Below, one piece after another: positions 7,219 to 51,070 of a DNA stretch of 64,000 nucleotides. How positions within the stretch are numbered: position 1 is the stretch's first letter; each line of letters starts with the position of its first letter. Made by a program: the position numbers and the translations under genes. Below the pieces are notes generated by a model, which did no database searches, was not told where the DNA came from, and was given only the letters and a program-made list of their open reading frames with translations. Source of the stretch: Candidatus Woesearchaeota archaeon (GTDB lineage: Archaea; Nanobdellota; Nanobdellia; SCGC-AAA011-G17; GW2011-AR18); the NCBI GenBank assembly GCA_964497265.1, contig CAZCCK010000002.1:20614-84613 (forward strand), read 5' to 3'.

Positions 7219-9873
7219 ATGACTGAGGGGCAGAGTCAAGATCTTCTAAAAGAACGCAAAGAGAAAGTAGTAACGTATCTTAAAGAGAAGAAAGATTGGT
7301 TTCAATATTTGATTTTAGCTCTTATCATTTGGATAGGCGCGTATGTCAGAGGGTTAGATTTGCCAAATCTAAAAGATATTACAACAGGATTACCTATTTC
7401 TTTAGAGCTTGATTCTACACTTTGGTTAAGATATGCGAGAGCGATTGTAGAGCATGGTTCTTTGTTCAAGGTCGATCCATTGCGTTACGTGCCGCTAGGC
7501 GCAGATATTAGAAATTTGGCTACTTTTACTTCTTATTTTATTGCTTATTTGTACAAAATCTTACACGTATTCAATTCTTCGGTTACGATTGGTTACGCGA
7601 ATAATGTATATCCGATTGTTGCTACAGCGATAATGACTTTTTTTCTTTTTCTTTTAGTAAGGAGATTGTTTGATTGGAAAACCGCGTTAGTTGCTTGTGC
7701 TTTTATTAATGTGAGCCAAACATTTTTCTTTAGAAGTCTAGGCGGATCTTCAGATCATGATATTTTAGGTGCAATGTGGATTATCATGGCATTTTATTTC
7801 TATGTGAGAGGATGGCAATCTAAAAAGAAAGTTGAAAATAGGGCTTGTGCGGTTTTAGCAGCATTAATAACTTCATTAGCGACAATTACGGCTGGTTCTT
7901 ATACATTTATTCTGATGGTGATTGGAGCGGTTAATTTATTTGAGATATTCCTCAATAAGTTTGAGCAGGAGGATTATTACAATTTGCTGACTTACCTTGT
8001 TTCCTTCATGTTGTTTTTCAAGATTTTTAATTCGACTAATTCCATTGTTCCGCTTTTCACTTCCTTAACCACAGGCTCAGTTTATCTTGCTCTAGCGATA
8101 GGAACGATAAATTGGGTAGTTTTCAAGAAAAGGTGGTTAGACAAGATAAGTTATGTACATAAGTACAAAGAAAAAGTTCCTGAAGGAATTTTTAGTTTCG
8201 TTTTAGGTGTATTAATTTTGCTTATCGGAGCTACACTTATTTTTGGACCCAGCTTTTTTATTGAAAAGATAGGAGATCTTTACAGCGTAGTTTTCAAAGC
8301 GTTTAATTATTCGAGATGGGCGTTGACAGTTGCAGAAAACAAAACTCCTTATGTAAAGGATTGGTTCGATCAAATGGGAACGCTTTACGTTTGGGGATTC
8401 ATTATTGGTTCAGTCCTATTATTTTACAACGCTGTGAAAAATTTAAAGAGAGCGTTACCTCTTACGGGAGCTTATACGTTTTTCATTTTCGGCTACATCT
8501 TCTCACGTTATTCAGGAGACAGTATTTTGAATGGATCAAGTTTAATTTCTAAGGGATTGTTTTATGCGGCTATCCTGGTCTTTATTGGAGTAATAGTGTA
8601 TGAGTATTGGAAAATGTTCAAAAGTAGAGATGGAGAGTTTGAAAAGATTAAAGAGATTAACCGAAGATATGCTTTCGTTTTGATGTGGTTCTTAATTATG
8701 ATTCTAGCTGCTGCTTCAGCGATTCGTTTATTATTTGATTTCACACCAATAACAACGATTATTGCAGCGTTTTTAGTGGCAAGTATTTTCGATTATTTTT
8801 ACAGCCTAAAGAATGTGTATTTGAGAAATTTTGGGATTTTCGCTCTTGCTTTAGTATTATTAAGTCCGTTTTCTTTTGCTCAGGGAATTTTGATTTCTGA
8901 GTATCATGCTTCTGAAGGACAAGCAAGATCAGCAGGACCTCAATACAACGCGCAATGGCAAGAAGCTGGAGCGTGGGTAAGAACAAATACCCCGCCAAAC
9001 GCAGTCTTTGCGCACTGGTGGGATTATGGGTATTGGGTACAAGAAGGATTTCAAAGAGCAACGATTACAGATGGAGGGAACTTCTTTGGATGGTGGAATT
9101 ATCTAATGGGAAGAAATGTTTTGACAGGTCAATCCGATGAAGAAGCATTACCTTATTTGTATGCACATAATGCGACTCATCTTTTGGTTCTTGCAGATGA
9201 TGTTGGTAAATATCCTGCATACGCGTCTATTGGTTCAGATAAAAATTATGATCGTTATTCGTTCATTAATACATTTGGATTAGATAAGCAAAACTCTATT
9301 GAAAAAAGAGATGAAACAGTATTACTTTATCAGGGGGGATTTCCTTTAGATGAAGATTTAATTTTGAATGGAAAAGTTTATCCTGCCAGCCAAGCTGGAA
9401 TTGGCGCGGTTATTGTTAATATGAAGCAAAACGGTCAGAATACAGATATTGGTCAGCCAAGAGCTGCTGTTGTTTATCAAGATCAAAGAGTAGATTTACC
9501 CATAAGGTGCATTTTTATTAATGGGCAATTGATTGAATTTAATAATTATAGTTTAGATGGATGTTTTAGAGTCATTCCTGTTATTAATAGTCCAACACAA
9601 ATAGATCCGATTGGCGCGGGCTTTTGGTTATCAAACAGAACGTATCATTCAAGAGTGGGACAATATTATATATTAAACCAAGAATCTAAAAATTTCAAAC
9701 TAGTCTATGATGATTCAAGCAAAATTCCTTTAGCGATCTACCAAGGCCATATTATCGGGCCAATGAAGATTTGGGAGATTAAGTATCCACAAGGATTAAC
9801 TCTTTCCGACAAAGAAAAAGAGTATTATTTAAGGACAGATTATCCTGATGAAGAGTTGTTAAAACCTAGGTAG
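7219..9873 (+). CDS. aglB: Archaeal oligosaccharyltransferase AglB (STT3 family, GT-C)
   Basis: Multi-TM N-terminal half. Acidic first external loop (GLDLPNL...LELDSTLWLRYAR). Hallmark WWDYGYW motif (AHWWDYGYWVQEGFQRATITDGGN). Large C-terminal soluble domain. The track start 7087 is TTG; the first ATG with a sensible N-terminus is 7219 (MTEGQ...). Confidence 0.9.
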   Translation: MTEGQSQDLLKERKEKVVTYLKEKKDWFQYLILALIIWIGAYVRGLDLPNLKDITTGLPISLELDSTLWLRYARAIVEHGSLFKVDPLRYVPLGADIRNLATFTSYFIAYLYKILHVFNSSVTIGYANNVYPIVATAIMTFFLFLLVRRLFDWKTALVACAFINVSQTFFFRSLGGSSDHDILGAMWIIMAFYFYVRGWQSKKKVENRACAVLAALITSLATITAGSYTFILMVIGAVNLFEIFLNKFEQEDYYNLLTYLVSFMLFFKIFNSTNSIVPLFTSLTTGSVYLALAIGTINWVVFKKRWLDKISYVHKYKEKVPEGIFSFVLGVLILLIGATLIFGPSFFIEKIGDLYSVVFKAFNYSRWALTVAENKTPYVKDWFDQMGTLYVWGFIIGSVLLFYNAVKNLKRALPLTGAYTFFIFGYIFSRYSGDSILNGSSLISKGLFYAAILVFIGVIVYEYWKMFKSRDGEFEKIKEINRRYAFVLMWFLIMILAAASAIRLLFDFTPITTIIAAFLVASIFDYFYSLKNVYLRNFGIFALALVLLSPFSFAQGILISEYHASEGQARSAGPQYNAQWQEAGAWVRTNTPPNAVFAHWWDYGYWVQEGFQRATITDGGNFFGWWNYLMGRNVLTGQSDEEALPYLYAHNATHLLVLADDVGKYPAYASIGSDKNYDRYSFINTFGLDKQNSIEKRDETVLLYQGGFPLDEDLILNGKVYPASQAGIGAVIVNMKQNGQNTDIGQPRAAVVYQDQRVDLPIRCIFINGQLIEFNNYSLDGCFRVIPVINSPTQIDPIGAGFWLSNRTYHSRVGQYYILNQESKNFKLVYDDSSKIPLAIYQGHIIGPMKIWEIKYPQGLTLSDKEKEYYLRTDYPDEELLKPR

Positions 9874-9903
9874 TTTTAAAAGGTTTTGCTAGTTGCTAGA
9901 AAG

Positions 9904-11577
9904 ATGCGAAATGCAACTAAAAAGCTTGTTTATTTTTATTTGTTTTTAGTGATAGCAAAAATCATTCTTTCTTTATTTGTTACCGCTCCTTCTGTATTCT
10001 CAGACGAGTACGTATACGCAAAGTTAGCAAGAGGTATTTTTTTTAGTGGAGAATTAAAAATTCATCAAGGAATTTTTACGACTCAGCAAATGCCGTTTTA
10101 TCCATTAGTTATTTCAATTGCTTATATTTTAAAAGATGTGGATCTAGTCTATCTAGTGATAAAAGGGCTGAATGCGCTATTACTAACATTGAGTATATTT
10201 CCAGTATTTTATTTAGCGAAGGATTTTGTCGATGAGAAAAAAGCTTTTTTTGTTGCAGCGATAGTGAGTTTTATTCCTAGTCTGTTTATTACTTCTTTTT
10301 ATATTATGTCTGAAAACGCGTTTTATCCCTTATTTTTATTCTGGATTTTTTTTACGTATAAAGCGCTGAAAGAAGAAAGTTCTTCTTATTTTATTCTTGC
10401 AGGCGGAGCATTAGGACTATGTTTCTTATCAAGGTTTATTGCTTTAGGATTAATTCCGGTTTTATTTTTAGTAAGTATTTTAAAAGTAAAAAAGGTAGGG
10501 TTAAAAAATATAGTATACTACTACACCCCCCCATTAGGAATGATTGCGTTGTGGTTCTTAAGGAATTTGAATTTGACAAAAGAAGCAAGTCAAGTTACGG
10601 GCGTGTATAGCGCTGTAGGAGAGAAATTAATTAATAGCGTTACCGTTTTAATTTTACCATTTGCAAATTGGATTTTGTTATATCTGGGTTATCTTTTGTT
10701 TTCTTCTGGAATTATTTTTGGGATTTACGCTCTTCTTTGTTATAAGATAAAGGACAAAAATCTAAAAATCTTATTTAGTTTATTTTTGTTAAGTTCATTA
10801 ATCTTTGTTCTTGCTGCGGCAAATGAATCTAGTTCTTTTAGAATATTTTTTGAGTCTCCATTTTTGTTTTTTACAAGAAGACCTTTAGGCAGATACGTTG
10901 AGTGTGTAACACCATTGCTAGTTCTTTTAGGTTTCATTGGATTTGAAAAGATAAAGATAAACAATCCTAATTGGAAGAAATTACTTTTATATTCAAGTTG
11001 CTTGCTTCTTTTAACAAGTCAGTTAACAATCGCGCCTTTATTCCCCTTTAATAATTCAAATGTAACTGCTTTAGGCGTTGGAAAATATATTTTAGATATA
11101 ACTTTTGTAGGAAAGTTTGTTGACACTCAAATTGTATATCCTAGTTTTTTTATTCTTGCTTTAGTTTTGGTAGTTTTACCTTGGTTTTTTTTAAAGAAAA
11201 AATCTTGGCAACCTAAATTAATCATGATCTTTTTTATCGTATCTTCAATAGCTGCTTTTGGAGTGACCTACAAAGAAAGTGAGAAATGGTCACAAAGTCC
11301 TCAAATGAAATTTGGTCACGAAATTGAGAAAGAATATCCTTCAAGTAAAATAATTCTCTTTGATGAAAGAGATTGTGTTGAGCAACTTTCGTTAACCCAA
11401 GAGGGAGAGATTTGTGAAAAGAGTAAAAAATCTACCTTAATGGGATTTTGGTTGAATAAGGACATAATAATTGGAAATGTGGAAACGCAAAAAGCGGATT
11501 TAGTTATAAGTAAACATCAGCTAAACTTAAAAAAGGTTAAGGATTTAAATGGAGGCGTTTTTGTGTATCAACCATGA
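9904..11577 (+). CDS. GT-C superfamily membrane glycosyltransferase (ArnT/PMT/GT39-83-like), lipid-linked-sugar dependent
   Basis: About 13 predicted TM helices. Conserved acidic DE motif in the first extracytoplasmic loop (FSDEYVYAKLARGIFF). No WWDYG motif. The track start 9886 is TTG; the first ATG is 9904. Confidence 0.5.
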   Translation: MRNATKKLVYFYLFLVIAKIILSLFVTAPSVFSDEYVYAKLARGIFFSGELKIHQGIFTTQQMPFYPLVISIAYILKDVDLVYLVIKGLNALLLTLSIFPVFYLAKDFVDEKKAFFVAAIVSFIPSLFITSFYIMSENAFYPLFLFWIFFTYKALKEESSSYFILAGGALGLCFLSRFIALGLIPVLFLVSILKVKKVGLKNIVYYYTPPLGMIALWFLRNLNLTKEASQVTGVYSAVGEKLINSVTVLILPFANWILLYLGYLLFSSGIIFGIYALLCYKIKDKNLKILFSLFLLSSLIFVLAAANESSSFRIFFESPFLFFTRRPLGRYVECVTPLLVLLGFIGFEKIKINNPNWKKLLLYSSCLLLLTSQLTIAPLFPFNNSNVTALGVGKYILDITFVGKFVDTQIVYPSFFILALVLVVLPWFFLKKKSWQPKLIMIFFIVSSIAAFGVTYKESEKWSQSPQMKFGHEIEKEYPSSKIILFDERDCVEQLSLTQEGEICEKSKKSTLMGFWLNKDIIIGNVETQKADLVISKHQLNLKKVKDLNGGVFVYQP

Positions 11578-12458
11578 AAGTTGTCGTAACAATTCCCGCT
11601 TATAACGAAGAGAAAACGTTAGGAAAAGTAATTGAAGATATTAAAAAGATTATGGATGAAAATAAGTATAATTATAAAATTCTCGTAGTTAATGATGGTT
11701 CCAGGGATAAAACTGCCGAAATAGCAAAGAAGGCGGGAGCTATTGTCTTTTCTCATCCGTTTAATATGGGTCTTGCAGAAACGTTTAGAACTGAAATGAA
11801 GAAGTGTTTGGAATTAAAGGCGGATATTATTGTGCATACTGACGCCGATGGGCAGTATCTTGCTTCAGATATTCCTCGTCTGATCGATCCGGTTGTTAAA
11901 GGAGAAGCAGATTTAGTATTAGGATCACGTTTTAAAGGAAAGATTGAGTCTATGCCGTTGATTAAAAGGTTAGGGAACAAAGCGTTTTCTCATGTAATTT
12001 CAAAGATTACCAAGCTGAAAATTTCAGATGGTCAAACAGGTTTTAGAGCGTTCACAAAAAAAGTTGCTGAGGCGATTCCGGTTATTTCTACGCACACGTA
12101 TACTCAAGAAACAATTATTCGAACTGCGCATCACAAGTTTAGAATTAAAGAAGTTCCCGTGTATTTTGCAAAGAGAGATGGAAAGTCAAGATTAATTTCT
12201 AATCCTTTTGAGTATGCGATTAAGGCTTGGATTAATATTTTTAGGATTTATAGAGATCATGAGCCTTTGAGGTTTTTCGGTCTGTTTGGAGGAGCTTTTA
12301 TTTTGTTAGGGCTAATCTTAGGTGCTTCTTTAACATATATTTTTTTAAGAACGGGCAAAGTGGGCCATATTCCTTTAACTATTTTAAGTATGCTTTTGAT
12401 TATCGTTGGATTACAGATAGTGTTGTTTGGATTCTTAGCAGATATGAATAAAAGATAA
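11574..12458 (+). CDS. GT2 glycosyltransferase, DPM1/GtrB-like polyprenyl-phosphate sugar synthase with a C-terminal two-TM anchor
   Basis: VVTIPAYNEEKTL...VNDGSRDKT...TDADGQ (DxD). Two C-terminal TM helices. ATGA overlap with the upstream gene. Confidence 0.8.
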   Translation: MKVVVTIPAYNEEKTLGKVIEDIKKIMDENKYNYKILVVNDGSRDKTAEIAKKAGAIVFSHPFNMGLAETFRTEMKKCLELKADIIVHTDADGQYLASDIPRLIDPVVKGEADLVLGSRFKGKIESMPLIKRLGNKAFSHVISKITKLKISDGQTGFRAFTKKVAEAIPVISTHTYTQETIIRTAHHKFRIKEVPVYFAKRDGKSRLISNPFEYAIKAWINIFRIYRDHEPLRFFGLFGGAFILLGLILGASLTYIFLRTGKVGHIPLTILSMLLIIVGLQIVLFGFLADMNKR

Positions 12459-12474
12459 AATGGATGAAACAGAG

Positions 12475-13704
12475 CTACTTCGATTTCGCAGCAAGTTGAT
12501 AAACGTTAAGTGTGTCTTTAAGCATTCTAGGTAAGTTCCAAAAAGAAGAAATTTTTTCTCTTCCGAGTCTACCCATTTCTTGGGCTTTTCGAGGATTTGA
12601 AAAGAGGTCTATGACCGCGTCAGAGATTGCTGCTGGATCTTTAGGAGCGACAAGATAACCTTCTTTAGAGGTTATAAGTTCTGGCTGACCTCCAACATTT
12701 GTACCAACAACAGGGGTGGCGGTCATCATTGCTTCCATATACGCTTGAGCGAGTTGTTCGATAATTGGTGGCATGACAAAGACGTTTGCGTTTTGTAAGT
12801 AAAGGGGAACTTCTTTAGGATCGAGATAGTCCTTAAATTCAAAGCTTTGCGCAAGATTGTTTTTCTGAACAAAATTACGAATCATTTTTTTATAGAGAAA
12901 AGATGCGCTTCCAACAAGAATGAATTTTGTTTCTGGGAATTTTTCAAGAATTTTGGGTGCGGCTTTAACAAGATAGATTGCTCCTTTGCGTTCCATGTTT
13001 GCGCCTATGAAGAGGACTGTTTTTTTCTGATATTTATCTTTTGGAATTGGAACGTCATATTTAGGAATGTTAATTCCTCTATAAACGACATGCATTTTTT
13101 CTTGGGGGAGAGCGTATTTTTTAGTGAGAAGGTTTGCTGCGTATTTGCAGTTTGGAATGATAAAGGTTGCGCCTCGAAGAGTTCGAACATAGAGGTATTT
13201 GATAAGATTATGATGAAGATAGCGGATAGGCATGTCTGTGGATTTGAAATGAAATTTGAAAGGATTCCATGAAGAGCCAACAATGTAATAATCATTAATA
13301 GAAACGATAGTAGGAAAATAAGAGTGGAGATAGGTATGATCCAAAAATGCTGCGTCTCGTAAGGTAATACTATGCAAAAGATCATATTTTGTGAGATCTA
13401 AAGTGCCAGATTTAAGGAAGGCGTTTGCTTTTTTAGCAAAGAGAGTATGCTTGTCTAAGAAGCTCCGGTTTTCTTTAGCTAAAGTTATTTTTTTTTGGAG
13501 GGGAAGACGATAGATAGTAAGATTGTCTATGACTTCATAGTCTAGACTAGTAGCATCATGTTTTGGTGTTAGAAGAGTGATTTTATACTGCTCTTTATAG
13601 TCCGTTTTCAGATAATTAATAAGGTTAAAAGCGTACATTCCTGTACCTGCAAGAGGATAAGGAGGGTATTCAAAACTGATGAGGATAATATTTAATGGTT
13701 TCAT
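12475..13704 (-). CDS. GT4 family glycosyltransferase
   Basis: GT-B fold with the C-terminal E-x7-E region (EAMMTATPVVGTNVGGQPELI). Confidence 0.8.
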   Translation of the reverse strand: MKPLNIILISFEYPPYPLAGTGMYAFNLINYLKTDYKEQYKITLLTPKHDATSLDYEVIDNLTIYRLPLQKKITLAKENRSFLDKHTLFAKKANAFLKSGTLDLTKYDLLHSITLRDAAFLDHTYLHSYFPTIVSINDYYIVGSSWNPFKFHFKSTDMPIRYLHHNLIKYLYVRTLRGATFIIPNCKYAANLLTKKYALPQEKMHVVYRGINIPKYDVPIPKDKYQKKTVLFIGANMERKGAIYLVKAAPKILEKFPETKFILVGSASFLYKKMIRNFVQKNNLAQSFEFKDYLDPKEVPLYLQNANVFVMPPIIEQLAQAYMEAMMTATPVVGTNVGGQPELITSKEGYLVAPKDPAAISDAVIDLFSNPRKAQEMGRLGREKISSFWNLPRMLKDTLNVYQLAAKSK

Positions 13705-13779: not shown

Positions 13780-14139
13780 ATGGAAAAGTACATTCAAGAG
13801 TTAATGAAAGTCAAGGGTATTCTTGACGCTAAACCAATAGAAGGAACTCAGAAGAATGTGTTAACCAATTTAGAAAGTGAAAACAATATTGGTATGTTAG
13901 CGTGTTTACAAAGAACCAATGTGGTGGTAGTAGTTCATAATGAAGCGTTCCGCAAGCCTCTTGGATCGTTAGTTCAGGTTGAGGAGGGAAAGGTAGTGTT
14001 TCCAGGGTTGCCTTTTCCTGAAGTAAAGGCGAAAAACGTCATCTCCGCCTCTCCGTCTAAGGATGCGCACGATTTTTTAAGAAGAGAATTTGGATGGGAA
14101 GAAAATACTTTAGCGACGATTCTTATTGGTTTTGATTAG
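13780..14139 (+). CDS. Hypothetical small protein
   Basis: ORF in a divergent intergenic region. No recognisable motif. Confidence 0.3.
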   Translation: MEKYIQELMKVKGILDAKPIEGTQKNVLTNLESENNIGMLACLQRTNVVVVVHNEAFRKPLGSLVQVEEGKVVFPGLPFPEVKAKNVISASPSKDAHDFLRREFGWEENTLATILIGFD

Positions 14140-17891: not shown

Positions 17892-17904
17892 CACTTTTTG
17901 TTGA

Positions 17905-18909: not shown

Positions 18910-19679
18910 TGTTTCTCCGCGATGACGTAGTAGAGGTGAGAGTAGATATGTTTAATAAATAATGGCATTGGGAATGTTTCAAACAAGTGCATTCCTTTGA
19001 TCCAGGTTGGATATTTTTTTCCCTTCATATATTTAACTGTATTTGCTTGCCATTCCATAGTTTCTACTTTCTCTCCCATCCTGTGGAATTTCATATCTCT
19101 AAATCCGACTGTATCTGGCCAAATTGGGCAGTTCATAACATCTGTTTTTATAATTTTTAATCCGTGTTTTCTTAAAAGTTTTCTTAATTTAGAAGGAAAT
19201 AAAAATAATTTGTCTCCGTGTGTCCAGGGAACATTGTTTATTTTGTGTAAGGTTCTATGGATTGGAGATCCGACATTATATCCATCTACACAAAGAATCA
19301 TTATATACTTGCTTGAAACTCGTTTCATTTCTTGAATAATTTCATTATAATTTGGAAACATAGGTAAGCTGGCGAAGTTCCATACAAAATCATAGGAGTT
19401 ATCTTTTAACGGAAGTTTATTTAGTTCTTTAGTTTTAATTGACTGGGGTTTTAGGTTAAGCTCGGCCCATACTTTAAGTCCGGATTCATGAGGATTGACT
19501 AATCCCACTTCACATCCTGCTTCTCCAAATCCTAAAGAGTAAAGTGAGGGTAGTGCTTTTAGGCCCATTGCGGGAACTTCTAAGACTTTTTGAACGTGAT
19601 ATTTTTTTGCTATTTTTTTTAAAGATTGATTAATTGCGTATCGTTCATAATCCAATTGGAAGGTTTCAGATTCAGCCAT
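18906..19679 (-). CDS. Hypothetical protein (weakly Rossmann/methyltransferase-like)
   Basis: Coupled to the downstream oxidoreductase. VLEVPAMGLKALP has only a weak resemblance to SAM-MTase motif I. No confident assignment. Confidence 0.35.
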   Translation of the reverse strand: MAESETFQLDYERYAINQSLKKIAKKYHVQKVLEVPAMGLKALPSLYSLGFGEAGCEVGLVNPHESGLKVWAELNLKPQSIKTKELNKLPLKDNSYDFVWNFASLPMFPNYNEIIQEMKRVSSKYIMILCVDGYNVGSPIHRTLHKINNVPWTHGDKLFLFPSKLRKLLRKHGLKIIKTDVMNCPIWPDTVGFRDMKFHRMGEKVETMEWQANTVKYMKGKKYPTWIKGMHLFETFPMPLFIKHIYSHLYYVIAEKQ

Positions 19680-28483: not shown

Positions 28484-28563
28484 TATTGGAGGGAGAGAGG
28501 GTCGTTTTATTAGCTTTACTGTTTTTTAGAAAGGTTTAAAAGGAATTTAGAGTGACAGCAAGT

Positions 28564-40087: not shown

Positions 40088-40088
40088 G

Positions 40089-43449: not shown

Positions 43450-44175
43450 TTAATTTATATGGTTAAAGTCCTTTTTTTCTTTCCAGAGTTTGTAGAGGCT
43501 TTTGAGCATAGAGAGTGTTGCTTTAATAGGTCTAACTTTGCTTTGTCTATTTGGAATATCAATAATTTTAGCAGGTATTTCTTTAACACTTAATCCTAAC
43601 CATTGACTTTTAAGTAAAACTTCTGTGTCCCACGCCCATCCTGTTTCGTGGATAAAGGGAAGAAAGCGTTGTACTGCAAAATGTCTGAATGCTTTAAAGC
43701 CGCATTGATAGTCATGAATATGAGAGTCTAAGAAAATTCTGGTAAGAAGAGAATATCCTTTACTTAAAATCCTGCGTGAAAAAGAATAGGTAACATCCGC
43801 ATTTGGAAGATGCTTTGATGCGATTGCAATGTCGTATGTAGTGAGTGCTTCAATAAGTTTTGGAAAAAGTTCTAGGTCTATAGCTAAGTCTGCATCTAGA
43901 ATAACGACAATTGTTCCTTTTGCTTGTTTAAGTCCGTTTGTTAACGCTGCTCCTTTTCCTAGATTTTGAGGATGTGTAATCAGATGAAGTTCTTTGTAAA
44001 TATTTATCTTTTCTTTTACAATAATTTCTGTTTTATCCCAAGAGCCATCATTTACAAGGAGGATTTCAAAAGGTTTGTGTTGGTTAAGAAGATAAGAGTA
44101 GACTCTGTCAAGAGTAGAAGAAATTATTTTTTCTTCATTATATGCAGGAATAATTAAAGAGTAAGTAAGGGCCAT
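43450..44175 (-). CDS. GT2 glycosyltransferase, DPM1-like
   Basis: YSLIIPAYNEEKII...LVNDGSWDKT...LDADL. Confidence 0.8.
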   Translation of the reverse strand: MALTYSLIIPAYNEEKIISSTLDRVYSYLLNQHKPFEILLVNDGSWDKTEIIVKEKINIYKELHLITHPQNLGKGAALTNGLKQAKGTIVVILDADLAIDLELFPKLIEALTTYDIAIASKHLPNADVTYSFSRRILSKGYSLLTRIFLDSHIHDYQCGFKAFRHFAVQRFLPFIHETGWAWDTEVLLKSQWLGLSVKEIPAKIIDIPNRQSKVRPIKATLSMLKSLYKLWKEKKDFNHIN

Positions 44176-44206: not shown

Positions 44207-45226
44207 TTACTTTAAGGAGGAAGGAGAAGAGTTTATTTTTTCTTGGATCTGATTCAAGATTTTTACAACGCGATATCCATTCATACCATCCGTAAGAAGA
44301 GGAACTCGACCTTCTAAAGCATCTACAAAGTGAGAAAGTTCTACATAGAGGGGTTCTGCTCCTTCAACAGGAAGACTGGTGATTGGACCGTTTCTATAAG
44401 CAGCTTGAAAGCCTGCAAAAGAGTCATAAGAAGATTCTACTCCTCTAGAATAAACGCGAAGGGGTTCCTTAGAGGTATCATCAAAAATAATCATTTTTTT
44501 ACTCCCTATGACGCTTACTTCTCTTACTTTTTGTGGATCAATCCAAGAAACATCTAAGTAAGCAGAGACGTTATTTGGGAAACGAAGTCTTGCTCTAGCC
44601 GTATCTTGGATACCATTATTCGTAGGATAGTGTTTATCTGCTTCTGCACTGACAAAAATAGGCATTTGATCATTTAGGAGGTAGAGTAAAATTGAAATAT
44701 CATGGGGCATTAAGTCCCAGACAACATTTACGTCTTTTTGGAAAAGACCTAAGTTTAAGCGTCTGGTAGAGATATGTAATATGTCTCCAATTTCTCCAGA
44801 GTCGATAAGGCTTTTCATTTGATGGACGGCAGGATTGTAAAGAAAGGTGTGACCGACACAGAGTTGAAGGTTAGAGTTCTTAGCCAGAGAAACTAAGTCT
44901 TGAGCGTCCTCTTCTCGTAAGGTAAGAGGTTTTTCAACGAAAACATGTTTCCCAGCATCTAATGCTTTCTTTGCTAAAGGATAATGAGTTGCTACTGGTG
45001 TTGCAAAGACGATTGCGTCTACTTCTGGATTTGAAAGTAAGTCTTCAAGGTTAGTAAGTTTTTGTGTAGAAGGAGGAAGGTTTTTTACTTTTTTTGCGCC
45101 AGTTTCTAAACGTTTGGGATCGCTGTCACAAAGAGCATAGAGATTCGCGTTCGGAAGGTTTGCTATGTTTCGAGCTAGATTTGGACCCCAATATCCTAAT
45201 CCCACAACAGCAAGGTTTTTCATCAA
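44207..45226 (-). CDS. Gfo/Idh/MocA family oxidoreductase (UDP-sugar 3-dehydrogenase-like, WbpB/WlbA type)
   Basis: MMKNLAVVGLGYWGPNLARN (Rossmann). VFVEKPL. Confidence 0.8.
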   Translation of the reverse strand: MMKNLAVVGLGYWGPNLARNIANLPNANLYALCDSDPKRLETGAKKVKNLPPSTQKLTNLEDLLSNPEVDAIVFATPVATHYPLAKKALDAGKHVFVEKPLTLREEDAQDLVSLAKNSNLQLCVGHTFLYNPAVHQMKSLIDSGEIGDILHISTRRLNLGLFQKDVNVVWDLMPHDISILLYLLNDQMPIFVSAEADKHYPTNNGIQDTARARLRFPNNVSAYLDVSWIDPQKVREVSVIGSKKMIIFDDTSKEPLRVYSRGVESSYDSFAGFQAAYRNGPITSLPVEGAEPLYVELSHFVDALEGRVPLLTDGMNGYRVVKILNQIQEKINSSPSSLK

Positions 45227-45337: not shown

Positions 45338-46450
45338 ATGAAAGCATTAGTTACTGGCGGAGCTGGATTGATTGGTTCTCATATTGTAGATCAGCTTCTT
45401 GCTAAAGGGTATTCTGTGAAAGTTATTGATAATCTAGAACAAGAAACGCATCAAAAAGGAAAGCCAGAGTGGATTCCTAAAGAAGTGGAATTTATTCATG
45501 GAAATACTGCAGATCCTGTTGCTATGCTTAAAGCGATGGACGGTGTTGATGTGATCTTTCATCAGGCAGCTTATGGTGGTTTTGCGCTAGATCAGAATAA
45601 GTATGTTCATTCAAATACGTTAGGGACAACAAATATGTTTTCTTTGATTAAGCAACATAAGTTGCCGATTAAAAAAGTAGTGTATGCTTCTTCTCAAGCG
45701 GTGTATGGTGAGGGAAAGTATTATTGTTCTGAGCATGGTGTTCAAGAGCCACATTTTAGAGGTCAAGAGCAAAGTCAAGCGGGAAGGTGGGAAATGGAAT
45801 GTGCTCAATGTGGTCATCCAATGATTCCATTGCCGACAGATGAAAACAAGAAACTTTGTCTTGACACTATGTATGCTATTACAAAGTATAGTCAAGAATT
45901 AGTTGCAAAAGCGATGGGAAAATCATTAGGTATTCCTACGGTAGGTTTAAGATATTCTATTACGTATGGTCCTCGTCAGTCGTTGTATAATCCCTATACT
46001 GGAATTTGTTCTATTTTTTCAACAATGATTCTCAATGATATTGCTCCAACAGTATATGAAGATGGAAGGCAAACGAGGGATTTTGTTTTTGTTGAGGATG
46101 TGGCGAAAGCAAATATAGTGGTAATGGAGAATGATAAAGCGAATAATGAAGTGTTTAATGTTGGTACAGGAAAGCAAACAAGTGTAATTGATTTTGTTAG
46201 GCATTTATCTGATGCGTATGGAAAAGAAGCGAAGTATAATTTTACTCAAGAGTTTCGTCCTTGTGATGTCAGGCATTTATATTCCGATAATAGGAAACTT
46301 GCAAAGTTAGGATTTAAACCTCAAGTAAGTCTTCAAGAAGGCATTAAAAAGTACGCAAATTGGATTAAAACCCAAGGACAGATAGAGGAGTATTTTAGTA
46401 AGTATAAGGAAAAGATGTTGCAGATGGGGATTGTTAAAAAGAAACAATGA
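45338..46450 (+). CDS. NAD-dependent nucleotide-sugar epimerase/dehydratase (extended SDR) with a Cys/His-rich insertion
   Basis: MKALVTGGAGLIGSHIV (GxxGxxG). Catalytic YAITK. About 35-aa insertion CSEHG...WEMECAQCGH between the catalytic Ser region and YxxxK. Confidence 0.8.
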   Translation: MKALVTGGAGLIGSHIVDQLLAKGYSVKVIDNLEQETHQKGKPEWIPKEVEFIHGNTADPVAMLKAMDGVDVIFHQAAYGGFALDQNKYVHSNTLGTTNMFSLIKQHKLPIKKVVYASSQAVYGEGKYYCSEHGVQEPHFRGQEQSQAGRWEMECAQCGHPMIPLPTDENKKLCLDTMYAITKYSQELVAKAMGKSLGIPTVGLRYSITYGPRQSLYNPYTGICSIFSTMILNDIAPTVYEDGRQTRDFVFVEDVAKANIVVMENDKANNEVFNVGTGKQTSVIDFVRHLSDAYGKEAKYNFTQEFRPCDVRHLYSDNRKLAKLGFKPQVSLQEGIKKYANWIKTQGQIEEYFSKYKEKMLQMGIVKKKQ

Positions 46451-47151
46451 ACGATTTTACTCTCTCGGTTGTTGCGCCAGCGTATAATGAAGAGAAGAAT
46501 CTGCAAAAGTTTTTAGAAGAAACAACAAAGTTCTTAGAAGCGCATACGAAGGATTATGAATTATTATTGATTAATGATGGAAGTAAGGATAATACTCTTA
46601 AGATTGCTAAAGAATTTGCTAAAAGCCATAAGAAAGTGAAAGTGATTGACAATGAGGTGAATCTTGGTTTCGGAGGTACAGAAAGAAAGGGTTTAGGAAT
46701 GGCTTCTATGGAGCTAGTTACATTGATTCCTTCAGATAATCAGTTTTATCTTCCAGATTTACCTCGTTATTTTGAAGCGATGAAGAACGCAGACATTGTC
46801 GTAGGATGGAGAATTAAAAGGCAGGATCCGTTGATGAGAAGGGTTGTTGCGAAGATCTATAGCTTAACGATCGCTATTCTATTTGGAACAACTTGGTTTG
46901 GAGATATTGATTGGGTTAAGATGTATCGAAGAGAAGTATTTGATAAAGTTAAAATAACGACAACGAGTGCCTTTGTTGACGCTGAAATTTTAATCCAAGC
47001 GCATCAGAATAAGTTTAGGATTAGAGAGCTTCCGGTGACCCATCTTCCGCGAGTTGAGGGAAAAGCTACTGGTGCAGGTTTAAAAGTTTTAAAAAGAGTT
47101 TTGCCTGAAGTATTTTCTTATTGGACAAAGCATCTAAGAAAGAAGCTATGA
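46447..47151 (+). CDS. GT2 glycosyltransferase, DPM1-like
   Basis: LSVVAPAYNEEKNL...LINDGSKDNT. ATGA overlap. Confidence 0.8.
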   Translation: MNDFTLSVVAPAYNEEKNLQKFLEETTKFLEAHTKDYELLLINDGSKDNTLKIAKEFAKSHKKVKVIDNEVNLGFGGTERKGLGMASMELVTLIPSDNQFYLPDLPRYFEAMKNADIVVGWRIKRQDPLMRRVVAKIYSLTIAILFGTTWFGDIDWVKMYRREVFDKVKITTTSAFVDAEILIQAHQNKFRIRELPVTHLPRVEGKATGAGLKVLKRVLPEVFSYWTKHLRKKL

Positions 47152-48314
47152 AAAATGTCTTGCTTGAGTTAGAGTTTAAGGATAAGAGATTAAGACCTAC
47201 TTGGTTAAGTAAAAATCCAAGGATTTTATTTAAAGAAGTAAAAGAGATAAGTGGAAAAGCTTTAGTGATCGGAAGAGATGAAAATAAAAGAGAATTCGTT
47301 TTAGTTACAAAAGATAAATGTGCTTATAATTATCAAGAGCAAATAAGTTTTTTATTAAATCAAGAGTATATAGAAAAGAAAAAGCCTTTACTGGCCATTC
47401 TTCCATTTCATTATCACCATATTCCATTTAGGATTTTTTTAAATAAGTTGTTAGTTAAATATCAAAGTAAAAAAATAAAGAAAGGCTTTCCGGATTGGCC
47501 AAGTGATGTTTCTGTTGACGTTCTTACTTTTATTAAAGAGAAGAAGAAAAGAGTTTCTTGGCCAAAGAAAAAGAAATATGCAATAATTTTAAGCCATGAT
47601 ATCGATACATCACAAGGGATGTCTCTGCTACCGGCGATTCTTTCAGTTGAAGAAAAGGCAGGGTTAAGATCAACGAATTTTTTTGTTGGGAATTACTACA
47701 AATTAAATCATGTTTTTTTGACAAAAATGCAAGAAAGAGGTCATGAGGTTGCTTGTCATGGGGATAAGCACGATTATCTTCTTCCTTATCTTACTAAAGA
47801 AGAAATAAGGCAGAGAATGGAAAAATGTAATCTTTTTTTAAAAAAGTATGATATCGCAGGTTTTCGAGCTCCTTCTTTGTTAATTAGCGAAAGTCTAGAT
47901 CAGGTAAATGAAAGTTTTTTTAGTTATGATTCTAGTGTGACAGATACAGAGTTGTTTATGCCTGATTCTAATTATAGTGGGTCTTGTAGTGTTTTTCCAT
48001 TTTTTAAAGGAAAGTTACTAAGAATTCCTATTACTTTACCAATGGATTCTTCACTGCTTTTTTTAGGGTATTCTCCAGAAAAAGTTTTAGAAGTATGGAG
48101 AGAGAAATTAAAATTAATTAAGGAAATAGGCGGGGTGGCTATGCTTGTGACCCATTCAGAAAAGCATTTTAGCGCAAATAGGAGGATGTTAGTGCTATAT
48201 GAAAGGTTTATTAAAGAGATTTGTAGCGACAAAGAAGTGTGGATTACCACCGGAAAAGAATTAACACAATACCTAAAAGGGAAAGAACATGACTTTGCAA
48301 AGATTAGTCAATAA
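47148..48314 (+). CDS. Polysaccharide deacetylase-like (CE4/NodB-fold) protein
   Basis: ILSHDIDTS (Asp motif), CHGDKHD (H-x-x-x-H-like metal motif), FRAPSL (R-x-P motif). The start is moved to the ATG giving an ATGA overlap (track 47121). Confidence 0.5.
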   Translation: MKNVLLELEFKDKRLRPTWLSKNPRILFKEVKEISGKALVIGRDENKREFVLVTKDKCAYNYQEQISFLLNQEYIEKKKPLLAILPFHYHHIPFRIFLNKLLVKYQSKKIKKGFPDWPSDVSVDVLTFIKEKKKRVSWPKKKKYAIILSHDIDTSQGMSLLPAILSVEEKAGLRSTNFFVGNYYKLNHVFLTKMQERGHEVACHGDKHDYLLPYLTKEEIRQRMEKCNLFLKKYDIAGFRAPSLLISESLDQVNESFFSYDSSVTDTELFMPDSNYSGSCSVFPFFKGKLLRIPITLPMDSSLLFLGYSPEKVLEVWREKLKLIKEIGGVAMLVTHSEKHFSANRRMLVLYERFIKEICSDKEVWITTGKELTQYLKGKEHDFAKISQ

Positions 48315-48882
48315 AGTGTTTTCAAATCCGTCTATTTTTATTTGGGTAAGAAGAATTTTAGAAAATAATTTTAAAGGAGAAAAGAGGGCAATAAGAACAG
48401 AACTAAATACGCAAGGAAAAACGCTAGACATTGCATGTGGGACTGGAGAGTTTTGTAGATTTTTTAATAAAGAAAGTTATTTGGGCATTGATCTTTCTGA
48501 AAAGTATATTAAGTATGCGCGAAAAAAGTATAAGTATCGTTTTGAGGTAGTTGATGCGACTAAAATGGATATTAGGTCAGAGTTTGATAATATTTTAGTT
48601 TGCGGCGTGTTTCATCATTTAGAGGATGAAGCGGTTTTAAAAATTTTAGCATCTGCAAAGAGGATGATAAAACCAGAAGGGAAAGTCTTAGTGATTGAAG
48701 ATATTCCAACAAGATCGAGACTAAATATTATTGGAAAGATAGTGCAGCACTTTGATGTTGGAAAGTTTATTAGGAAGCACGAGCAATATGGCCAGTTATA
48801 TCAAAAAGAGTTAACAATAATTAAAAATTATAAGATGAGGAGCGGAGTGAGCGATTATTCTGTGTTTGTTCTTCAAAGATGA
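48289..48882 (+). CDS. Class I SAM-dependent methyltransferase
   Basis: TLDIACGTGEF (motif I), LGIDLSEKYIKYA, VCGVFHHLEDEA. Confidence 0.75.
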   Translation: MTLQRLVNKVFSNPSIFIWVRRILENNFKGEKRAIRTELNTQGKTLDIACGTGEFCRFFNKESYLGIDLSEKYIKYARKKYKYRFEVVDATKMDIRSEFDNILVCGVFHHLEDEAVLKILASAKRMIKPEGKVLVIEDIPTRSRLNIIGKIVQHFDVGKFIRKHEQYGQLYQKELTIIKNYKMRSGVSDYSVFVLQR

Positions 48883-49592
48883 AAGAAAGAGAATATCAAA
48901 TTATGTATGAGATTGAGGATGATTTTTGGTGGTTTGTAGCGCTAAGAAGGTTGTATCGTTTTTTATTAGGGAAGAAGAAAGGATTGATTTTGGATGTGGG
49001 TTGTGGGACTGGAAGAAATTTGAAGATGTTAGACCGTTATGGAGAGGCAGTTGGTTTAGATTTTTCTGCTTTGGCTTTAGAATTTTCTTTAAAGAGAGGC
49101 AATAAGAAGCTTATAGAAGGGGATGTAAAGAGCTTACCTTTTAAGGACGAAACGTTTGATATTGTGTTAGCGAGTGATGTTTTGTATCATCAGTGGGTTG
49201 ATCAAGAGAAAGCGATTGGAGAGTTGAACAGAGTTTTAAAAAGAGAGGGCTTATTGATTTTCAATACTGCGTCTTATAATTTTCTAAAAAGCGAGCACGA
49301 TCGGGCGGTAATGACAAAAGTAAGATATACAAAAAAAGAGTTTAAGAAATTTCTTGAAAGAAATAAGTTTAAAGTTGAGAAGATTTTTTATTGGAATTCA
49401 TTTCTATTTCCTCTTGTTGCTTTAGGTAGAGTTTTAGAATTTAAAAACAGAAAGAATTCAGAGTTAAGAGAGATAAATCCGTTGATAAATAAAATATTAA
49501 AGAATATCTTAACTATAGAGATAATGTTGATTAGACTAGGTTTTTCTTTTCCGTTTGGATTGTCGATTATGGGTAGAGCAAAAAAGCTTTAA
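48879..49592 (+). CDS. Class I SAM-dependent methyltransferase
   Basis: LILDVGCGTGRNL, VGLDFSALALE, DIVLASDVLYHQW. ATGA overlap. Confidence 0.8.
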   Translation: MKEREYQIMYEIEDDFWWFVALRRLYRFLLGKKKGLILDVGCGTGRNLKMLDRYGEAVGLDFSALALEFSLKRGNKKLIEGDVKSLPFKDETFDIVLASDVLYHQWVDQEKAIGELNRVLKREGLLIFNTASYNFLKSEHDRAVMTKVRYTKKEFKKFLERNKFKVEKIFYWNSFLFPLVALGRVLEFKNRKNSELREINPLINKILKNILTIEIMLIRLGFSFPFGLSIMGRAKKL

Positions 49593-51070
49593 AGGCTATA
49601 AAGGCAGCTATTTTCTTTAACGATTTTTTGATGTAGTCCACATTGATTGAGTTGTTCACAAAATTCTTTTCGCGCAAGAACTTCAGTGGTATTAAAGTAA
49701 GAAAGTTCGCTTCTAAAAGTGAGACAATCATTGCGATCGAATGCTCTGTAGACCCCGTCCATTCTTGCAAGATAAGAATATTCTTTTTCTTCGGGATACC
49801 AGCCTGAGATGGATTTGACGTTTTGTGTTGCTGCAAGAGAATAGAATGCTTTGGGAAAAGGTCCTTCTGGATAAGTGCCAACCATAATGAACCGATCATG
49901 AAGGTTAGGTAAGTAAGAACTAAATTCGTTTTCAAGAGGCGTAGGTACTGCAAAAAGAGGAGTGTGTACGATATTAATAAGAACGCTCAAGAGAGCGAAA
50001 AGAGTCAAAAGATAAGGAAGGGCTTTCTTTAAGAGAGGGGGCAAAGATGTTAAATCCAGCATAAGGAGAAAAAAGGTTGCTAGAAAAATAAAGTAGTGGA
50101 GAATTGGGTCTGGATAGATTTGGTCAAAGATAGGTAAGAGCGCGCTAAGTCTTAAGAAAAAGAGTAAACAAAGAATCATGCTTGGAGCAAAGAAGAGAAA
50201 TTCTACTTTTTCTTTACGAGTATAAAAAAAGAATAACAAAAGTGTTGCGAGAGGAATGATCGCTAAAGCGATTTGAGTATAAAGATCGTGGGGGGTAAAG
50301 GACCAAATCCATTGTCCTTGTTTGAGATGGGGAATTGCGCTTTCTGTGAAGATTTTTAAAACAAAGGGAACAAGCCAAAACGAGCTAAGAAGAAAGCTAG
50401 AAAAGAGGGTGGCAATAATTTTAAGAAAGTCTTTTCTCTTTACGAGGAGAAATCCTAGCCAGAGAAGTCCTGCGAGCACAGCAGTGCTGTGATAGGAGAG
50501 GATAATGAGCGCATAAGTCGGTGCAGATAAGTAAAAGATCCAGTCTAAAGGTTTTTTTCGGTAAGTATAGAGGGTGAAGAAAAGGAGAATAAAAAAGACC
50601 CAAGAGAAAAGTTCGTGTGCTCTTCCTAAACGAATAAAGTTTCCAATAGCAGAAGCGTTTGTAAAGAAAAGAAGGAAGAAAAAGATTCTTTTTAGAGGAG
50701 TTAGTCCTAAAGGTTTTGTTAAGAAGTAAAGAAGGATAAATCCAGCAAGAAAGCTGATGAGCAAGGTAAGATAAAGTGCGATATTTACCTGATGGAAAAG
50801 TAAGTAGAAAGGATAGGCGAAGTAGTACCAAGCTGGAGGAGAGAAGGTGAAGGTAGTAAATCCATTGTACCAATAAGGGCAAAATTGGTGAAATCCACAA
50901 ACTTTAATGAAGTGAATTTGAGCCATGTAGGAGCTAAGATCGTTGAAGAAATCAAGAGGGAAGTAACGTAAGAGTTTTGATTCATCAATAAGTCGATAGA
51001 GGAAATTGAGAGCTAAGAGAAGTATTGGGAAAAGAAGCCATTTATCTGAGATTTTTTTGGAATCAGACAT
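49589..51070 (-). CDS. Large polytopic membrane protein (possible GT-C / polymerase / ligase-like), function unknown
   Basis: More than 12 hydrophobic helices. Last gene of the glyco island on this side. Confidence 0.4.
   Translation of the reverse strand: MSDSKKISDKWLLFPILLLALNFLYRLIDESKLLRYFPLDFFNDLSSYMAQIHFIKVCGFHQFCPYWYNGFTTFTFSPPAWYYFAYPFYLLFHQVNIALYLTLLISFLAGFILLYFLTKPLGLTPLKRIFFFLLFFTNASAIGNFIRLGRAHELFSWVFFILLFFTLYTYRKKPLDWIFYLSAPTYALIILSYHSTAVLAGLLWLGFLLVKRKDFLKIIATLFSSFLLSSFWLVPFVLKIFTESAIPHLKQGQWIWSFTPHDLYTQIALAIIPLATLLLFFFYTRKEKVEFLFFAPSMILCLLFFLRLSALLPIFDQIYPDPILHYFIFLATFFLLMLDLTSLPPLLKKALPYLLTLFALLSVLINIVHTPLFAVPTPLENEFSSYLPNLHDRFIMVGTYPEGPFPKAFYSLAATQNVKSISGWYPEEKEYSYLARMDGVYRAFDRNDCLTFRSELSYFNTTEVLARKEFCEQLNQCGLHQKIVKENSCLYSL

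Follow-up and report, generated by a model that had tools for sequence, protein, structure and literature searches.

The window analysed here is a stretch of 64,000 nucleotides (nt) from a Candidatus Woesearchaeota archaeon (contig CAZCCK010000002.1 of assembly GCA_964497265.1, positions 20,614 to 84,613). We suggest that its positions 7219-51070, ~44 kb, are probably a genuine and intact cell-surface glycosylation island, with AglB as its sole oligosaccharyltransferase (OST) and several modules, each conserved independently, grouped around it. The island reads as a compact and apparently complete parts list: a single OST and a single initiating enzyme, two modules centred on flippases, and four arms that combine a dolichol phosphate (Dol-P) sugar with a membrane glycosyltransferase of the GT-C type. 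Since there are two flippase modules and four such arms, it is nearly certain that more than one lipid-linked intermediate is formed, and on balance we favour a second oligosaccharide line among these.

The 40 open reading frames (ORFs) of the island lie back-to-back, 98% of the sequence being coding, between the gap that follows a small ORF at 6474-6947 and a SpoIIM-family gene at 51108-51974. Coordinates are those of the window, and a sign after them gives the strand. Every window ORF of at least 100 amino acids (aa) was scanned against Pfam at gathering cutoffs, island proteins were also scanned against NCBIfam with equivalog cutoffs, and transcription units, about 16 in number, were deduced purely from the strand and spacing of the genes. 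Each of the 40 ORFs is intact. Their Pfam domains are covered near full length, except in two methyltransferases, 26931-27596 (221 aa) and 36567-37088 (173 aa), which match the Methyltransf_11 profile in its C-terminal half only; these could be shortened forms of the enzyme, or their starts may have been called wrongly. The GC content is 35.6% inside the island and 36.5% in its flanks. We found no tRNA genes in the island or at its edges, the Pfam scans gave no integrase or transposase there, and an Rfam scan gave no match. On these grounds a recent foreign origin of the island was rejected.

An earlier note on this DNA, made from the sequence alone, had listed roughly 14 glycosyltransferases (GTs) over about 44 kb after aglB. 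The Pfam profiles upheld these calls with exactly the same counts, namely seven of family GT4, six of family GT2 and one of MraY/WecA type. Pfam likewise returned the two flippases of the multidrug/oligosaccharidyl-lipid/polysaccharide (MOP) superfamily and the UPF0104 flippase-like protein (the latter also by TIGR00374), and all of the tailoring genes that had been named: two GFO/IDH/MocA dehydrogenases, a short-chain dehydrogenase/reductase (SDR), a carbohydrate esterase family 4 (CE4) deacetylase and an FAD-dependent oxidoreductase of the DAO family. Absent from that inventory were five radical S-adenosylmethionine (radical-SAM) genes, six class-I methyltransferases, a Cys-rich protein (g15) and an orphan ORF (g09).

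AglB (7219..9873, +; 884 aa) belongs to the STT3 family (PF02516, 40.2 bits against a cutoff of 24.5). Its WWDYG motif is read directly from the translation (AHWWDYGYWV), and is invariant in an alignment with 16 relatives, as are D65, D179 (in SSDHD), T370-V-A-E373, the WWDYG columns 600-604 and G663-K664 of DxxK (D-V-G-K). The acidic residues of external loop 1 and the transmembrane (TM) part, the TIXE/SVSE-type motif of external loop 5 and the DK motif are present, and correspond to the catalytic residues of AfAglB by motif position. Solved STT3/AglB chains align with the window AglB around WWDYG. The predicted reaction is transfer of an oligosaccharide to Asn, with dolichol-(pyro)phosphate as the carrier. 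Assignment to the archaeosortase-A subfamily was rejected (TIGR04154, 90.9 against a cutoff of 450). A search of one genome per species across Bacteria and Archaea recovered relatives from DPANN archaea only; these are metagenome-assembled genomes (MAGs) of Woesearchaeota/Nanoarchaeia plus a few labelled merely 'archaeon' or 'uncultured Methanosarcinales', with 35-65% identity. At one related locus, L071, the gene at ~10001-12619 and the next ORF both match AglB best and may be tandem paralogues or a split gene.

The two flippases are Wzx19 (g19, 24396..25952, +; Polysacc_synt 7.6e-23, 81.8 bits), with ~14 TM segments, and Wzx33 (g33, 38849..40087, -; Polysacc_synt_3 6e-17, 62.3 bits), with at least nine TM segments in a crude hydropathy scan. 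Domain and TM count place both among the MOP/Wzx flippases, and both are predicted to translocate lipid-linked oligosaccharide. They are only 23% identical to each other. For comparison, we called ORFs in 80 related AglB loci, each with 10 kb on either side, and labelled these by homology to the window proteins; L001-L089 below denote loci or contigs of relatives.

Wzx33 belongs with g34 (40089..41105, -), a polyprenyl-phosphate N-acetylhexosamine (HexNAc)-1-phosphate transferase of the AglH/DPAGT1 type (PF00953 1.4e-31, 110 bits), and with g32 (38112..38852, -), a short GT2 that resembles AglJ, PgfS and ArnC by Pfam and NCBIfam. Among solved structures, human DPAGT1 comes closest to g34 (1.2e-11, against 4.7e-8 for MraY); g34 is nearer to GPT than to MraY and is a predicted HexNAc-1-phosphate transferase. 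The gene order WecA>Wzx33>GT2 is found in 13 related loci, and the block of AglH-like, Wzx and GT2 genes stands directly beside AglB in many Woesearchaeal contigs. An AglH/WecA-like gene directly follows AglB in 17/72 loci, and lies within 10 kb of it in 33/80. Orthologues of g32 follow Wzx33 in L009, L016, L020, L047, L060 and L081, and those of the radical-SAM/SPASM gene g36 (42341..43420, +; Pfam) adjoin WecA in L060 and L081 (62-72% identity). Locus L081 carries a single block with counterparts of g36 (72% identity), WecA (61%), Wzx33 (51%), g32 (61%) and the GT-C gene G44 (53%), together with Dol-P-synthase-like GT2s and a PMT_2 gene.

The Wzx19 block has a different set of companions. 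L082 is collinear with g16-g25 of the window at 40-85% identity: the B12-binding radical-SAM gene g16 (85%), the SPASM gene g17 (79%), g18 (GT4, 23263..24354, -; 52%), Wzx19 (52%), g20 (GT4, 25979..26971, +; 48%), the class-I SAM methyltransferase g22 (27581..28483, -; 53%), g24 (GT4, 29633..30805, -; 40%) and g25 (GT4, 30856-31974, +; 67%), all of these by Pfam. Wzx19 orthologues occur in Nanoarchaeia at 45-59% identity. Orthologues of g18 and g20 are found in L082 and L083, those of g18 adjoining Wzx19. In MAG GCA_038046085.1 the AglB locus (L004) and the Wzx19 locus (L083) are on different contigs, and L083 has the order GT4-Wzx19-methyltransferase-ferredoxin-FNR-B12 radical-SAM-GT4 with housekeeping genes on its flanks. 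We did not find both flippase types together in any of the 80 AglB neighbourhoods, within their 10 kb on either side. The strongest indication that two separable lipid-linked assembly units have been brought together in the island comes from these separately conserved modules and from the stand-alone L083 locus.

The earlier note had argued for at least two lipid-linked lines both from the two flippases and from the several GT-C enzymes. The first argument is supported by the separate conserved modules, and the second is not supported. The additional GT-C genes as such are real: g06 (9886..11577, +, with a likely ATG at 9904, the start given in the earlier note; PMT_2 36.2 bits against 26.1), which has ~11 TM segments with SDEY in loop 1, and g28 (33955..35427, +; 56.2 bits against 26.1), which has WDEADY in loop 1 within a WWDEADY motif in which W39 and D41 are invariant. 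Two further proteins, noted earlier as large and polytopic, prove to be of the same kind, g35 (41129..42280, -) through a PMT_2 match (45.8 bits against 26.1) and a TDEDF loop, and G44 (49589..51070, -) through the GT-C fold of its AlphaFold model. All are PMT_2/PTPS_related in type, unlike STT3. Since each lies near a GT2 resembling Dol-P-sugar synthases, the step from several GT-Cs to several assembly lines is unjustified. By analogy with the AglD/AglR/AglS or ArnC/ArnT systems, they probably add single sugars on the outer side of the membrane. Such single-sugar arms do add further lipid-linked intermediates, namely monosaccharides.

The clearest arm is g06-g07. The g07 product (11574..12458, +) is an AglJ/Dol-P-hexose-synthase-like GT2 with two C-terminal TM segments (TIGR04182 AglJ over the full length at 2e-52, below cutoff). 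Its best PDB matches, which include the C-terminal membrane helices, are the Pyrococcus furiosus Dol-P-Man synthase (1.7e-16), ArnC and GtrB. The two genes overlap by 4 nt, and the order AglB-g06-g07 is kept in L001, L003, L004 and L038. In L084 homologues of both form an operon with a homologue of g11 (15644..16588, -), the UPF0104/MprF-type flippase-like membrane protein (LPG_synthase_TM 2.9e-29; TIGR00374, 88 bits against 43), which is a candidate Dol-P-sugar flippase. A second pair joins g28 to g27 (33086..33958, +), a GT21-like membrane GT2 (Glyco_tranf_2_3 2e-23, Glyco_transf_21 8e-13), and recurs in L065 and L040. A pair of the same make-up adjoins a UPF0104 gene and STT3 at a further locus that holds a member of the g16 family (hereafter the g16-family STT3 locus). 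Another candidate Dol-P-sugar synthase is g37 (43450..44175, -), a short soluble GT2 resembling Dol-P-Man synthase in its catalytic domain (PDB 5mlz, 1.5e-19).

At the right end of the island, five genes converge on G44: an SDR nucleotide-sugar epimerase/dehydratase (g39, 45338..46450, +; Epimerase 1.8e-43), a short ArnC-like GT2 (g40, 46447..47151, +; PRK10714 ArnC 3.7e-19, 68.9 bits against 529), a CE4 polysaccharide deacetylase (g41, 47121..48314, +; Polysacc_deac_1 5.5e-11) and two class-I SAM methyltransferases (g42 and g43, 48289..49592, +; Pfam). Among the related AglB loci, 7/8 of those with CE4 also bear G44 (Fisher p = 2.6e-5). This arm may be ArnC/ArnD/ArnT-like: CE4 scores above its cutoff and G44 is adjacent; the ArnC match of g40 is sub-threshold, and there is neither aminotransferase nor formyltransferase.

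G44 itself has no Pfam or NCBIfam match. Its 112 homologues are all unnamed or from Woesearchaeota/Nanoarchaeota, and ~15 bear PF10131 (PTPS_related). In the alignment N43-D44 of the first loop is invariant and the C-terminal cysteines are conserved. The AlphaFold (AF2) model is confident (predicted local distance difference test score, pLDDT, 95.4; predicted template modelling score, pTM, 0.93), and a Foldseek search with it matched only GT-C enzymes (STT3, AglB, PglB, DPY19, AftD, AftA, ArnT; E 9e-6 to 9e-4, TM-score 0.5-0.6). With hhalign, G44 against the AglB profile gave a probability of 2.9%, and against the g28-type PMT_2 profile 68% (E = 4.9e-5) over the N-terminal half with the acidic loop. 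G44 is present in 16 of the 80 related loci and directly follows AglB in eight. We read it as a divergent, uncharacterised GT-C family whose genes are conserved beside AglB among Woesearchaeota, an assignment which draws its fold from the model. Two other identities were considered for G44 and rejected, a Wzy-type polymerase or O-antigen ligase on the ground that the model matches GT-C only, and a second, cryptic STT3 on the ground of the two hhalign results and the missing WWDxG motif. G44 may represent a GT-C family not described before, whose members act beside AglB as another conserved transferase on the extracytoplasmic side.

Several points weigh against the second oligosaccharide line and against the arms as drawn here. 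In the island, g34 is the only phosphoglycosyltransferase and AglB the only OST, and Pfam gave no match to Wzy, Wzy_C or O-antigen ligase, Wzz, Bac_transf or PglC-type transferases in window ORFs of at least 100 aa. We could therefore identify neither an initiating nor a terminal enzyme belonging to the second module. That the two flippases never share a related locus is only weakly informative, given the limit of 10 kb on either side. None of the glycosyltransferases, flippases or radical-SAM proteins of the island reached an NCBIfam equivalog cutoff in three scans, the sole cutoff passed being that of TIGR00374 by g11, so that the substrate assignments are analogies. Finally, g35 and G44 are tied to particular GT2s by proximity only.

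A rival reading is a single N-glycan pathway, in which one large branched dolichyl-diphosphate-linked glycan would be primed by g34, built by all of the GT2 and GT4 enzymes, flipped by Wzx33 and transferred by AglB as the sole terminal transferase, Wzx19 being a helper that flips Dol-P-monosaccharides for the GT-Cs. The single phosphoglycosyltransferase and single STT3 fit such a pathway, the four GT-C enzymes would require flipped Dol-P-sugar donors, and the second Wzx could be of the AglR kind: in Haloferax the Wzx-like AglR serves the delivery of Dol-P-mannose and not a second oligosaccharide, while Agl15 flips the precursor of a second N-glycan (PMC3871713). We nevertheless consider a single pathway unlikely. 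The Wzx19 block is kept together with two to five GT4 and with radical-SAM and methyltransferase genes, and at L083 it stands alone without GT-C or Dol-P-sugar synthase, which fits an oligosaccharide unit better. A flippase-like protein, UPF0104, already goes with the GT2/GT-C pairs. Moreover, 13 cytoplasmic glycosyltransferases and four GT-Cs acting on one glycan would make it outsized, and we know of no characterised archaeal N-glycan as large as this would give.

Alternatively, the product of the Wzx19 module may not be bound for protein at all, but be a membrane glycolipid or lipoglycan that is built directly on lipid by the GT4 and GT21-like enzymes and then flipped outward. In favour of this, neither a phosphoglycosyltransferase nor an OST accompanies the module in L082, L083 or L084. 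It would also agree with the match of g27 to Glyco_transf_21, a lipid glucosyltransferase family, with the sub-threshold likeness of g13 to inositol 2-dehydrogenase, and with the membership in GT4 of lipid glycosyltransferases such as PimA. If true, it would be relevant to an episymbiont that remodels scavenged lipids. However, the window, L004, L065 and the g16-family STT3 locus all have the module inside an AglB cluster or next to one, and MOP flippases have been characterised for polyprenyl-linked substrates. We regard a glycolipid product as quite unlikely, and retain a second lipid-linked oligosaccharide as the preferred product of the Wzx19 module.

The conserved neighbours of AglB are dispersed in the window: AglB marks the left end of the island, G44 and the SpoIIM-family membrane protein (51108..51974, -; PF01944 2e-16) its right end, and the WecA-Wzx33-GT2 genes lie mid-island on the strand opposite AglB. 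Among the relatives, a SpoIIM-family gene is directly upstream of AglB and in the same direction in 28/75 loci (L003, L004, L038, L055 and others), which suggests that this uncharacterised archaeal protein is linked to N-glycosylation at the operon level. The window has 41 kb between the SpoIIM-family gene and AglB. The near relatives L003, L004 and L038 have the order SpoIIM>AglB>GT-C>GT2, and the closest relative, L001, has ThrRS-g04-AglB-GT-C as in the window. The simplest account would be that the whole island has been inverted between SpoIIM and ThrRS/g04 relative to L003, L004 and L038. It is highly improbable that the region is a hypervariable dump of cassettes exchanged laterally among Woesearchaeota under virus- or host-recognition pressure with only a subset functional, as the gene content beside AglB that varies strongly among relatives, the mosaic identity to L004 (51% for AglB, 72-83% for g16 and g17) and the apparent inversion might suggest, for its 40 ORFs are intact and tightly packed, its GC content shows no anomaly, and transposases, integrases and tRNA genes are missing from the island and its edges.

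The five radical-SAM genes fall into two classes. B12-binding and radical-SAM domains are both above their cutoffs in g10 (14193..15662, +; B12-binding 1e-18, Radical_SAM 6e-29) and g16 (20543..22003, -; Pfam), which are of the class B (cobalamin-dependent) type, while g12 (16626..17954, -; Radical_SAM 8e-24, SPASM 1e-10), g17 (22019..23293, +; Pfam), which is diverged from g16, and g36 are SPASM proteins. Below threshold, the B12 class best matches BchE, HpnJ, PhpK and AprD4 in NCBIfam, while the SPASM proteins come closest to AhbD, NirJ and peptide maturases. B12 radical-SAM genes occur in 30 of the 80 AglB loci. The g16 family is conserved at 72-88% identity in close relatives whose AglB is only ~51% identical, and g17 reaches 83% in L004 and 79% in L082. 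At 45% identity or more, the g16 family comprises >100 clusters, including members from Chloroflexota and Bacteroidales, and has no functional name.

We sampled ten genomic contexts of the g16 family and found glycan-related genes in all ten, nine of them glycosyltransferase clusters and the tenth, L089, a locus with genes for nucleoside diphosphate-sugar synthesis and a GT2. Besides the collinear Wzx19 block of L082, the stand-alone Wzx19 locus L083 and a Wzx19 block with GT-C genes in L084, the contexts include L004 (AglB, GT-C, GT2, SPASM radical-SAM, GT4) and the g16-family STT3 locus (GT4, GT21-like GT2, PMT_2, UPF0104, STT3). The g16-type gene lies at 8001-9389 in L085 (Bacteroidales; WecG, SDR, a second B12 radical-SAM), at 8001-9401 in L086 (a Chloroflexota MAG; Wzz, Bac_transf, GT2, SPASM radical-SAM, a second B12 radical-SAM, GT4), at 8001-9383 in L087 (three GT2, five B12 radical-SAM in total, GT4, PMT) and at 6001-7395 in L088 (CE4, two SPASM radical-SAM, GT4, GT2). 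The bacterial g16-type proteins from Bacteroidales and Chloroflexota MAGs are 45-50% identical, lie in polysaccharide loci and often have one to four extra B12 radical-SAM genes and a SPASM radical-SAM gene alongside.

From these settings we infer that the radical-SAM enzymes tailor sugars. They may be an uncharacterised glycan-tailoring class acting on sugars linked to nucleotides or dolichol, with reactions that could include, for example, C-methylation, deoxygenation, epimerisation or ring contraction. We found no paper linking radical SAM with AglB in archaea. That both proposals hold, the radical-SAM enzymes being a new glycan-tailoring class and G44 a new GT-C family beside AglB, is put forward tentatively and as somewhat doubtful. 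If the first of them is true, DPANN surface glycans would bear radical-modified sugars.

A cluster for ribosomally synthesised and post-translationally modified peptides, with radical-SAM/SPASM maturases acting on g15, was also considered for this part of the island. It was rejected, as g15 is not conserved with g16 and g17 in L004 and L082 and is absent from the related loci that contain radical-SAM genes, while all ten g16 contexts are glycan-related. The g15 product (19740..20471, -) is, by its translation, a secreted or anchored protein with 16 Cys, which from its place in the island is at most a candidate member of the pathway. The sole long repeat in the window is a 143-nt direct repeat, 20310-20452 and 52473-52615, with 90% identity. 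It encodes a common N-terminal stretch of ~48 residues (MAK..SNFKTAEVTAGVLILLIGVVVFTTALTGSLTGASLASASN) in g15 and in g46 (52047-52622), a Cys-rich protein with 12 Cys that is encoded just outside the island beside SpoIIM, after which the two sequences diverge. This common stretch could serve as a signal-anchor or as a leader of the pilin kind, or it could be a substrate for recombination.

The scheme that we propose starts from what the sequences show, namely which families the proteins belong to, which motifs they carry, and which modules are conserved and co-occur; its substrates, order of steps and acceptors go beyond this, and taken as a whole we judge it somewhat more likely right than wrong. 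In a first line, the AglH/DPAGT1-like g34 would prime dolichol phosphate with HexNAc-1-phosphate, the nearby GT2, GT4 and methyltransferase would extend the glycan in the cytoplasm, and Wzx33 would flip it for AglB to move it onto Asn. A second module (~20543-35427), with a B12 radical-SAM, a SPASM radical-SAM, five GT4, Wzx19, two methyltransferases, the FAD enzyme and the g27-g28 pair of membrane GT2 and GT-C, would assemble and export a second lipid-linked glycan, for which the acceptor might be an N-glycan, an O-glycan or a glycolipid. As separate arms, the short GT2s g07, g32, g37 and g40 would make Dol-P-monosaccharides, which would be flipped, with g11 as a candidate, and used outside by g06, g28, g35 and G44. 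The SDR, ArnC-like GT2, CE4 and methyltransferases by G44 resemble the ArnC/ArnD/ArnT scheme for a deacetylated amino sugar. Finally, the five radical-SAM enzymes and six methyltransferases may modify the sugars.

The remaining island genes are assigned as follows. Between the g06-g07 pair and the second module lie a GT4 (g08, 12475..13704, -; Glycos_transf_1 1.5e-30) with orthologues in L003 and L004, a GFO/IDH/MocA sugar or inositol dehydrogenase (g13, 17905..18909, -; Pfam), whose sub-threshold likeness extends also to UDP-GlcNAc 3-dehydrogenase, and a class-I SAM methyltransferase (g14, 18906..19679, -; Methyltransf_11 6e-7). Here too, upstream of the B12 radical-SAM gene g10, is the orphan g09 (13780..14139, +), a soluble protein of 119 aa with no Pfam or NCBIfam match and no homologue in the 80 related loci. 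The second module further holds the short class-I SAM methyltransferase g21 (26931..27596, -; Pfam), the DAO-family oxidoreductase g23 (28552..29643, +; Pfam), which has no specific NCBIfam assignment, and g26 (31971-33089, +; Pfam), a GT4 in tandem with g25 and 33% identical to it. Around Wzx33 are a GT4 (g29, 35395..36570, -; Pfam), the second short SAM methyltransferase (g30, 36567..37088, -), a GT2 (g31, 37125..38075, -; Pfam) and the other GFO/IDH/MocA dehydrogenase (g38, 44207..45226, -; Pfam), with a sub-threshold match to the archaeal UDP-GlcNAc 3-dehydrogenase.

In L084 (4572-8125) the Wzx19 module adjoins phosphonate genes, encoding a phosphoenolpyruvate mutase fused to a cytidylyltransferase-like domain, a thiamine pyrophosphate-dependent decarboxylase and an iron-containing alcohol dehydrogenase, and a carbamoyltransferase is present too. 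This hints that the glycans of some Woesearchaeota are decorated with phosphonate or carbamoyl groups.

The flanks hold archaeal housekeeping and surface genes. On the left are genes for ThrRS (4762-6480) and, just beyond it, for two large proteins, secreted or anchored, that carry LamG and MG2/Ig-like domains (639-4684). The Ig-like protein has 10 N-X-S/T sequons and the LamG protein has none, and an Ig-like homologue also lies beside ThrRS in L001 and L081. It is plausible that these surface proteins are glycoprotein targets of the island. On the right are genes for a diphthamide synthase (54666-55379) and a MoxR/DUF58/VWA cluster (56435-63870). Preceding the diphthamide synthase gene, after a gap of 304 nt, genes for a Bro-N domain protein and a SET-domain protein of 107 aa occupy 53426-54640. 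Bro-N is common in viruses and mobile elements, a homologue was found only in L046 among the related loci, and the pair may be a mobile-element remnant. The GC skew of the plus strand is very strong and uniformly positive over the whole window (1-64000; mean +0.22), with +0.28 for plus-strand and +0.17 for minus-strand genes. Since genes of both orientations have a positive skew, it is not a coding-strand effect. The absolute GC skew of related Woesearchaeal loci has a median of 0.087 and reaches 0.31, and these values suggest that mutation in this lineage is strongly asymmetric in association with replication.

In DPANN archaea, to which this tiny-celled organism belongs, genomes are very small and life depends on touching host cells, and surface glycans are therefore likely to be central to their attachment and to their escape from viruses. 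To our knowledge, almost nothing is known of glycosylation in these archaea. Titles and abstracts of the literature on Woesearchaeota, glycosyltransferases and N-glycosylation mention no analysis of such clusters. The island brings forward two enzyme families, the glycan-associated B12 radical-SAM proteins of Archaea and Bacteria and the AglB-neighbour GT-C family of G44, and offers candidates for heterologous biochemistry.

Several known systems bear comparison. Like bacterial Wzx/Wzy loci for O-antigen or capsule, the island combines MOP flippases with GT4, GT2 and nucleotide-sugar tailoring genes, and the B12 radical-SAM family of g16 also occurs in such a Wzx/Wzy-type locus, that of the Chloroflexota MAG with Wzz and Bac_transf. 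Unlike in these loci, Wzy, Wzz, a ligase and a PglC-type transferase are all missing from the window, and G44 folds as a GT-C and not as Wzy. The ArnC/ArnD/ArnT and GtrA/B/C systems share with the island the combination of a short GT2 for charging polyprenyl phosphate, a CE4-type deacylase, a small or dedicated flippase and a GT-C that adds one sugar on the outside, here represented by g40, g41 and G44 and by g07, g11 and g06. The island differs from Arn in having no ArnA/ArnB-type formyltransferase or aminotransferase, in an acceptor that is not lipid A, in the two methyltransferases of the operon and in G44, which is only distantly ArnT/PMT_2-like (the hhalign probability of 68% given above). 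With the crenarchaeal and eukaryotic systems, where AglH/DPAGT1 initiates with Dol-PP-GlcNAc, it has in common g34, a member of PF00953 whose best solved relative is human DPAGT1. The identity to DPAGT1 is low, however, and we identified no second-step enzyme like Agl24 or Alg13-14.

The agl cluster of Haloferax volcanii (AglB, AglJ/G/I/E, AglD, AglR, AglS, AglP; PMC3871713) is likewise centred on AglB. There, too, GT2s charge dolichol phosphate, SAM methyltransferases tailor the glycan, and a GT2 supplies a separate Dol-P-sugar that, after delivery with the help of a Wzx-like protein, is added outside by the polytopic transferase AglS. By comparison, the island, from an uncultivated DPANN archaeon, has initiation of the AglH/DPAGT1 type, a predominance of GT4, four non-STT3 GT-Cs instead of one, and five radical-SAM enzymes, and extends over ~44 kb against HVO_1517 to HVO_1531. 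The 'low-salt' Agl5-Agl15 pathway of Haloferax (PMC3892788, PMC3871713) is a second N-glycan line with its own Wzx-like flippase. Agl15 and AglR are 28% identical, and the two flippases here 23%. In Haloferax the two clusters are at separate loci, whereas here the two modules are fused in one island around AglB. The overall logic holds no new principle; it is an elaboration of the known agl, Arn and Gtr schemes, in a compositional variant from an unstudied phylum.

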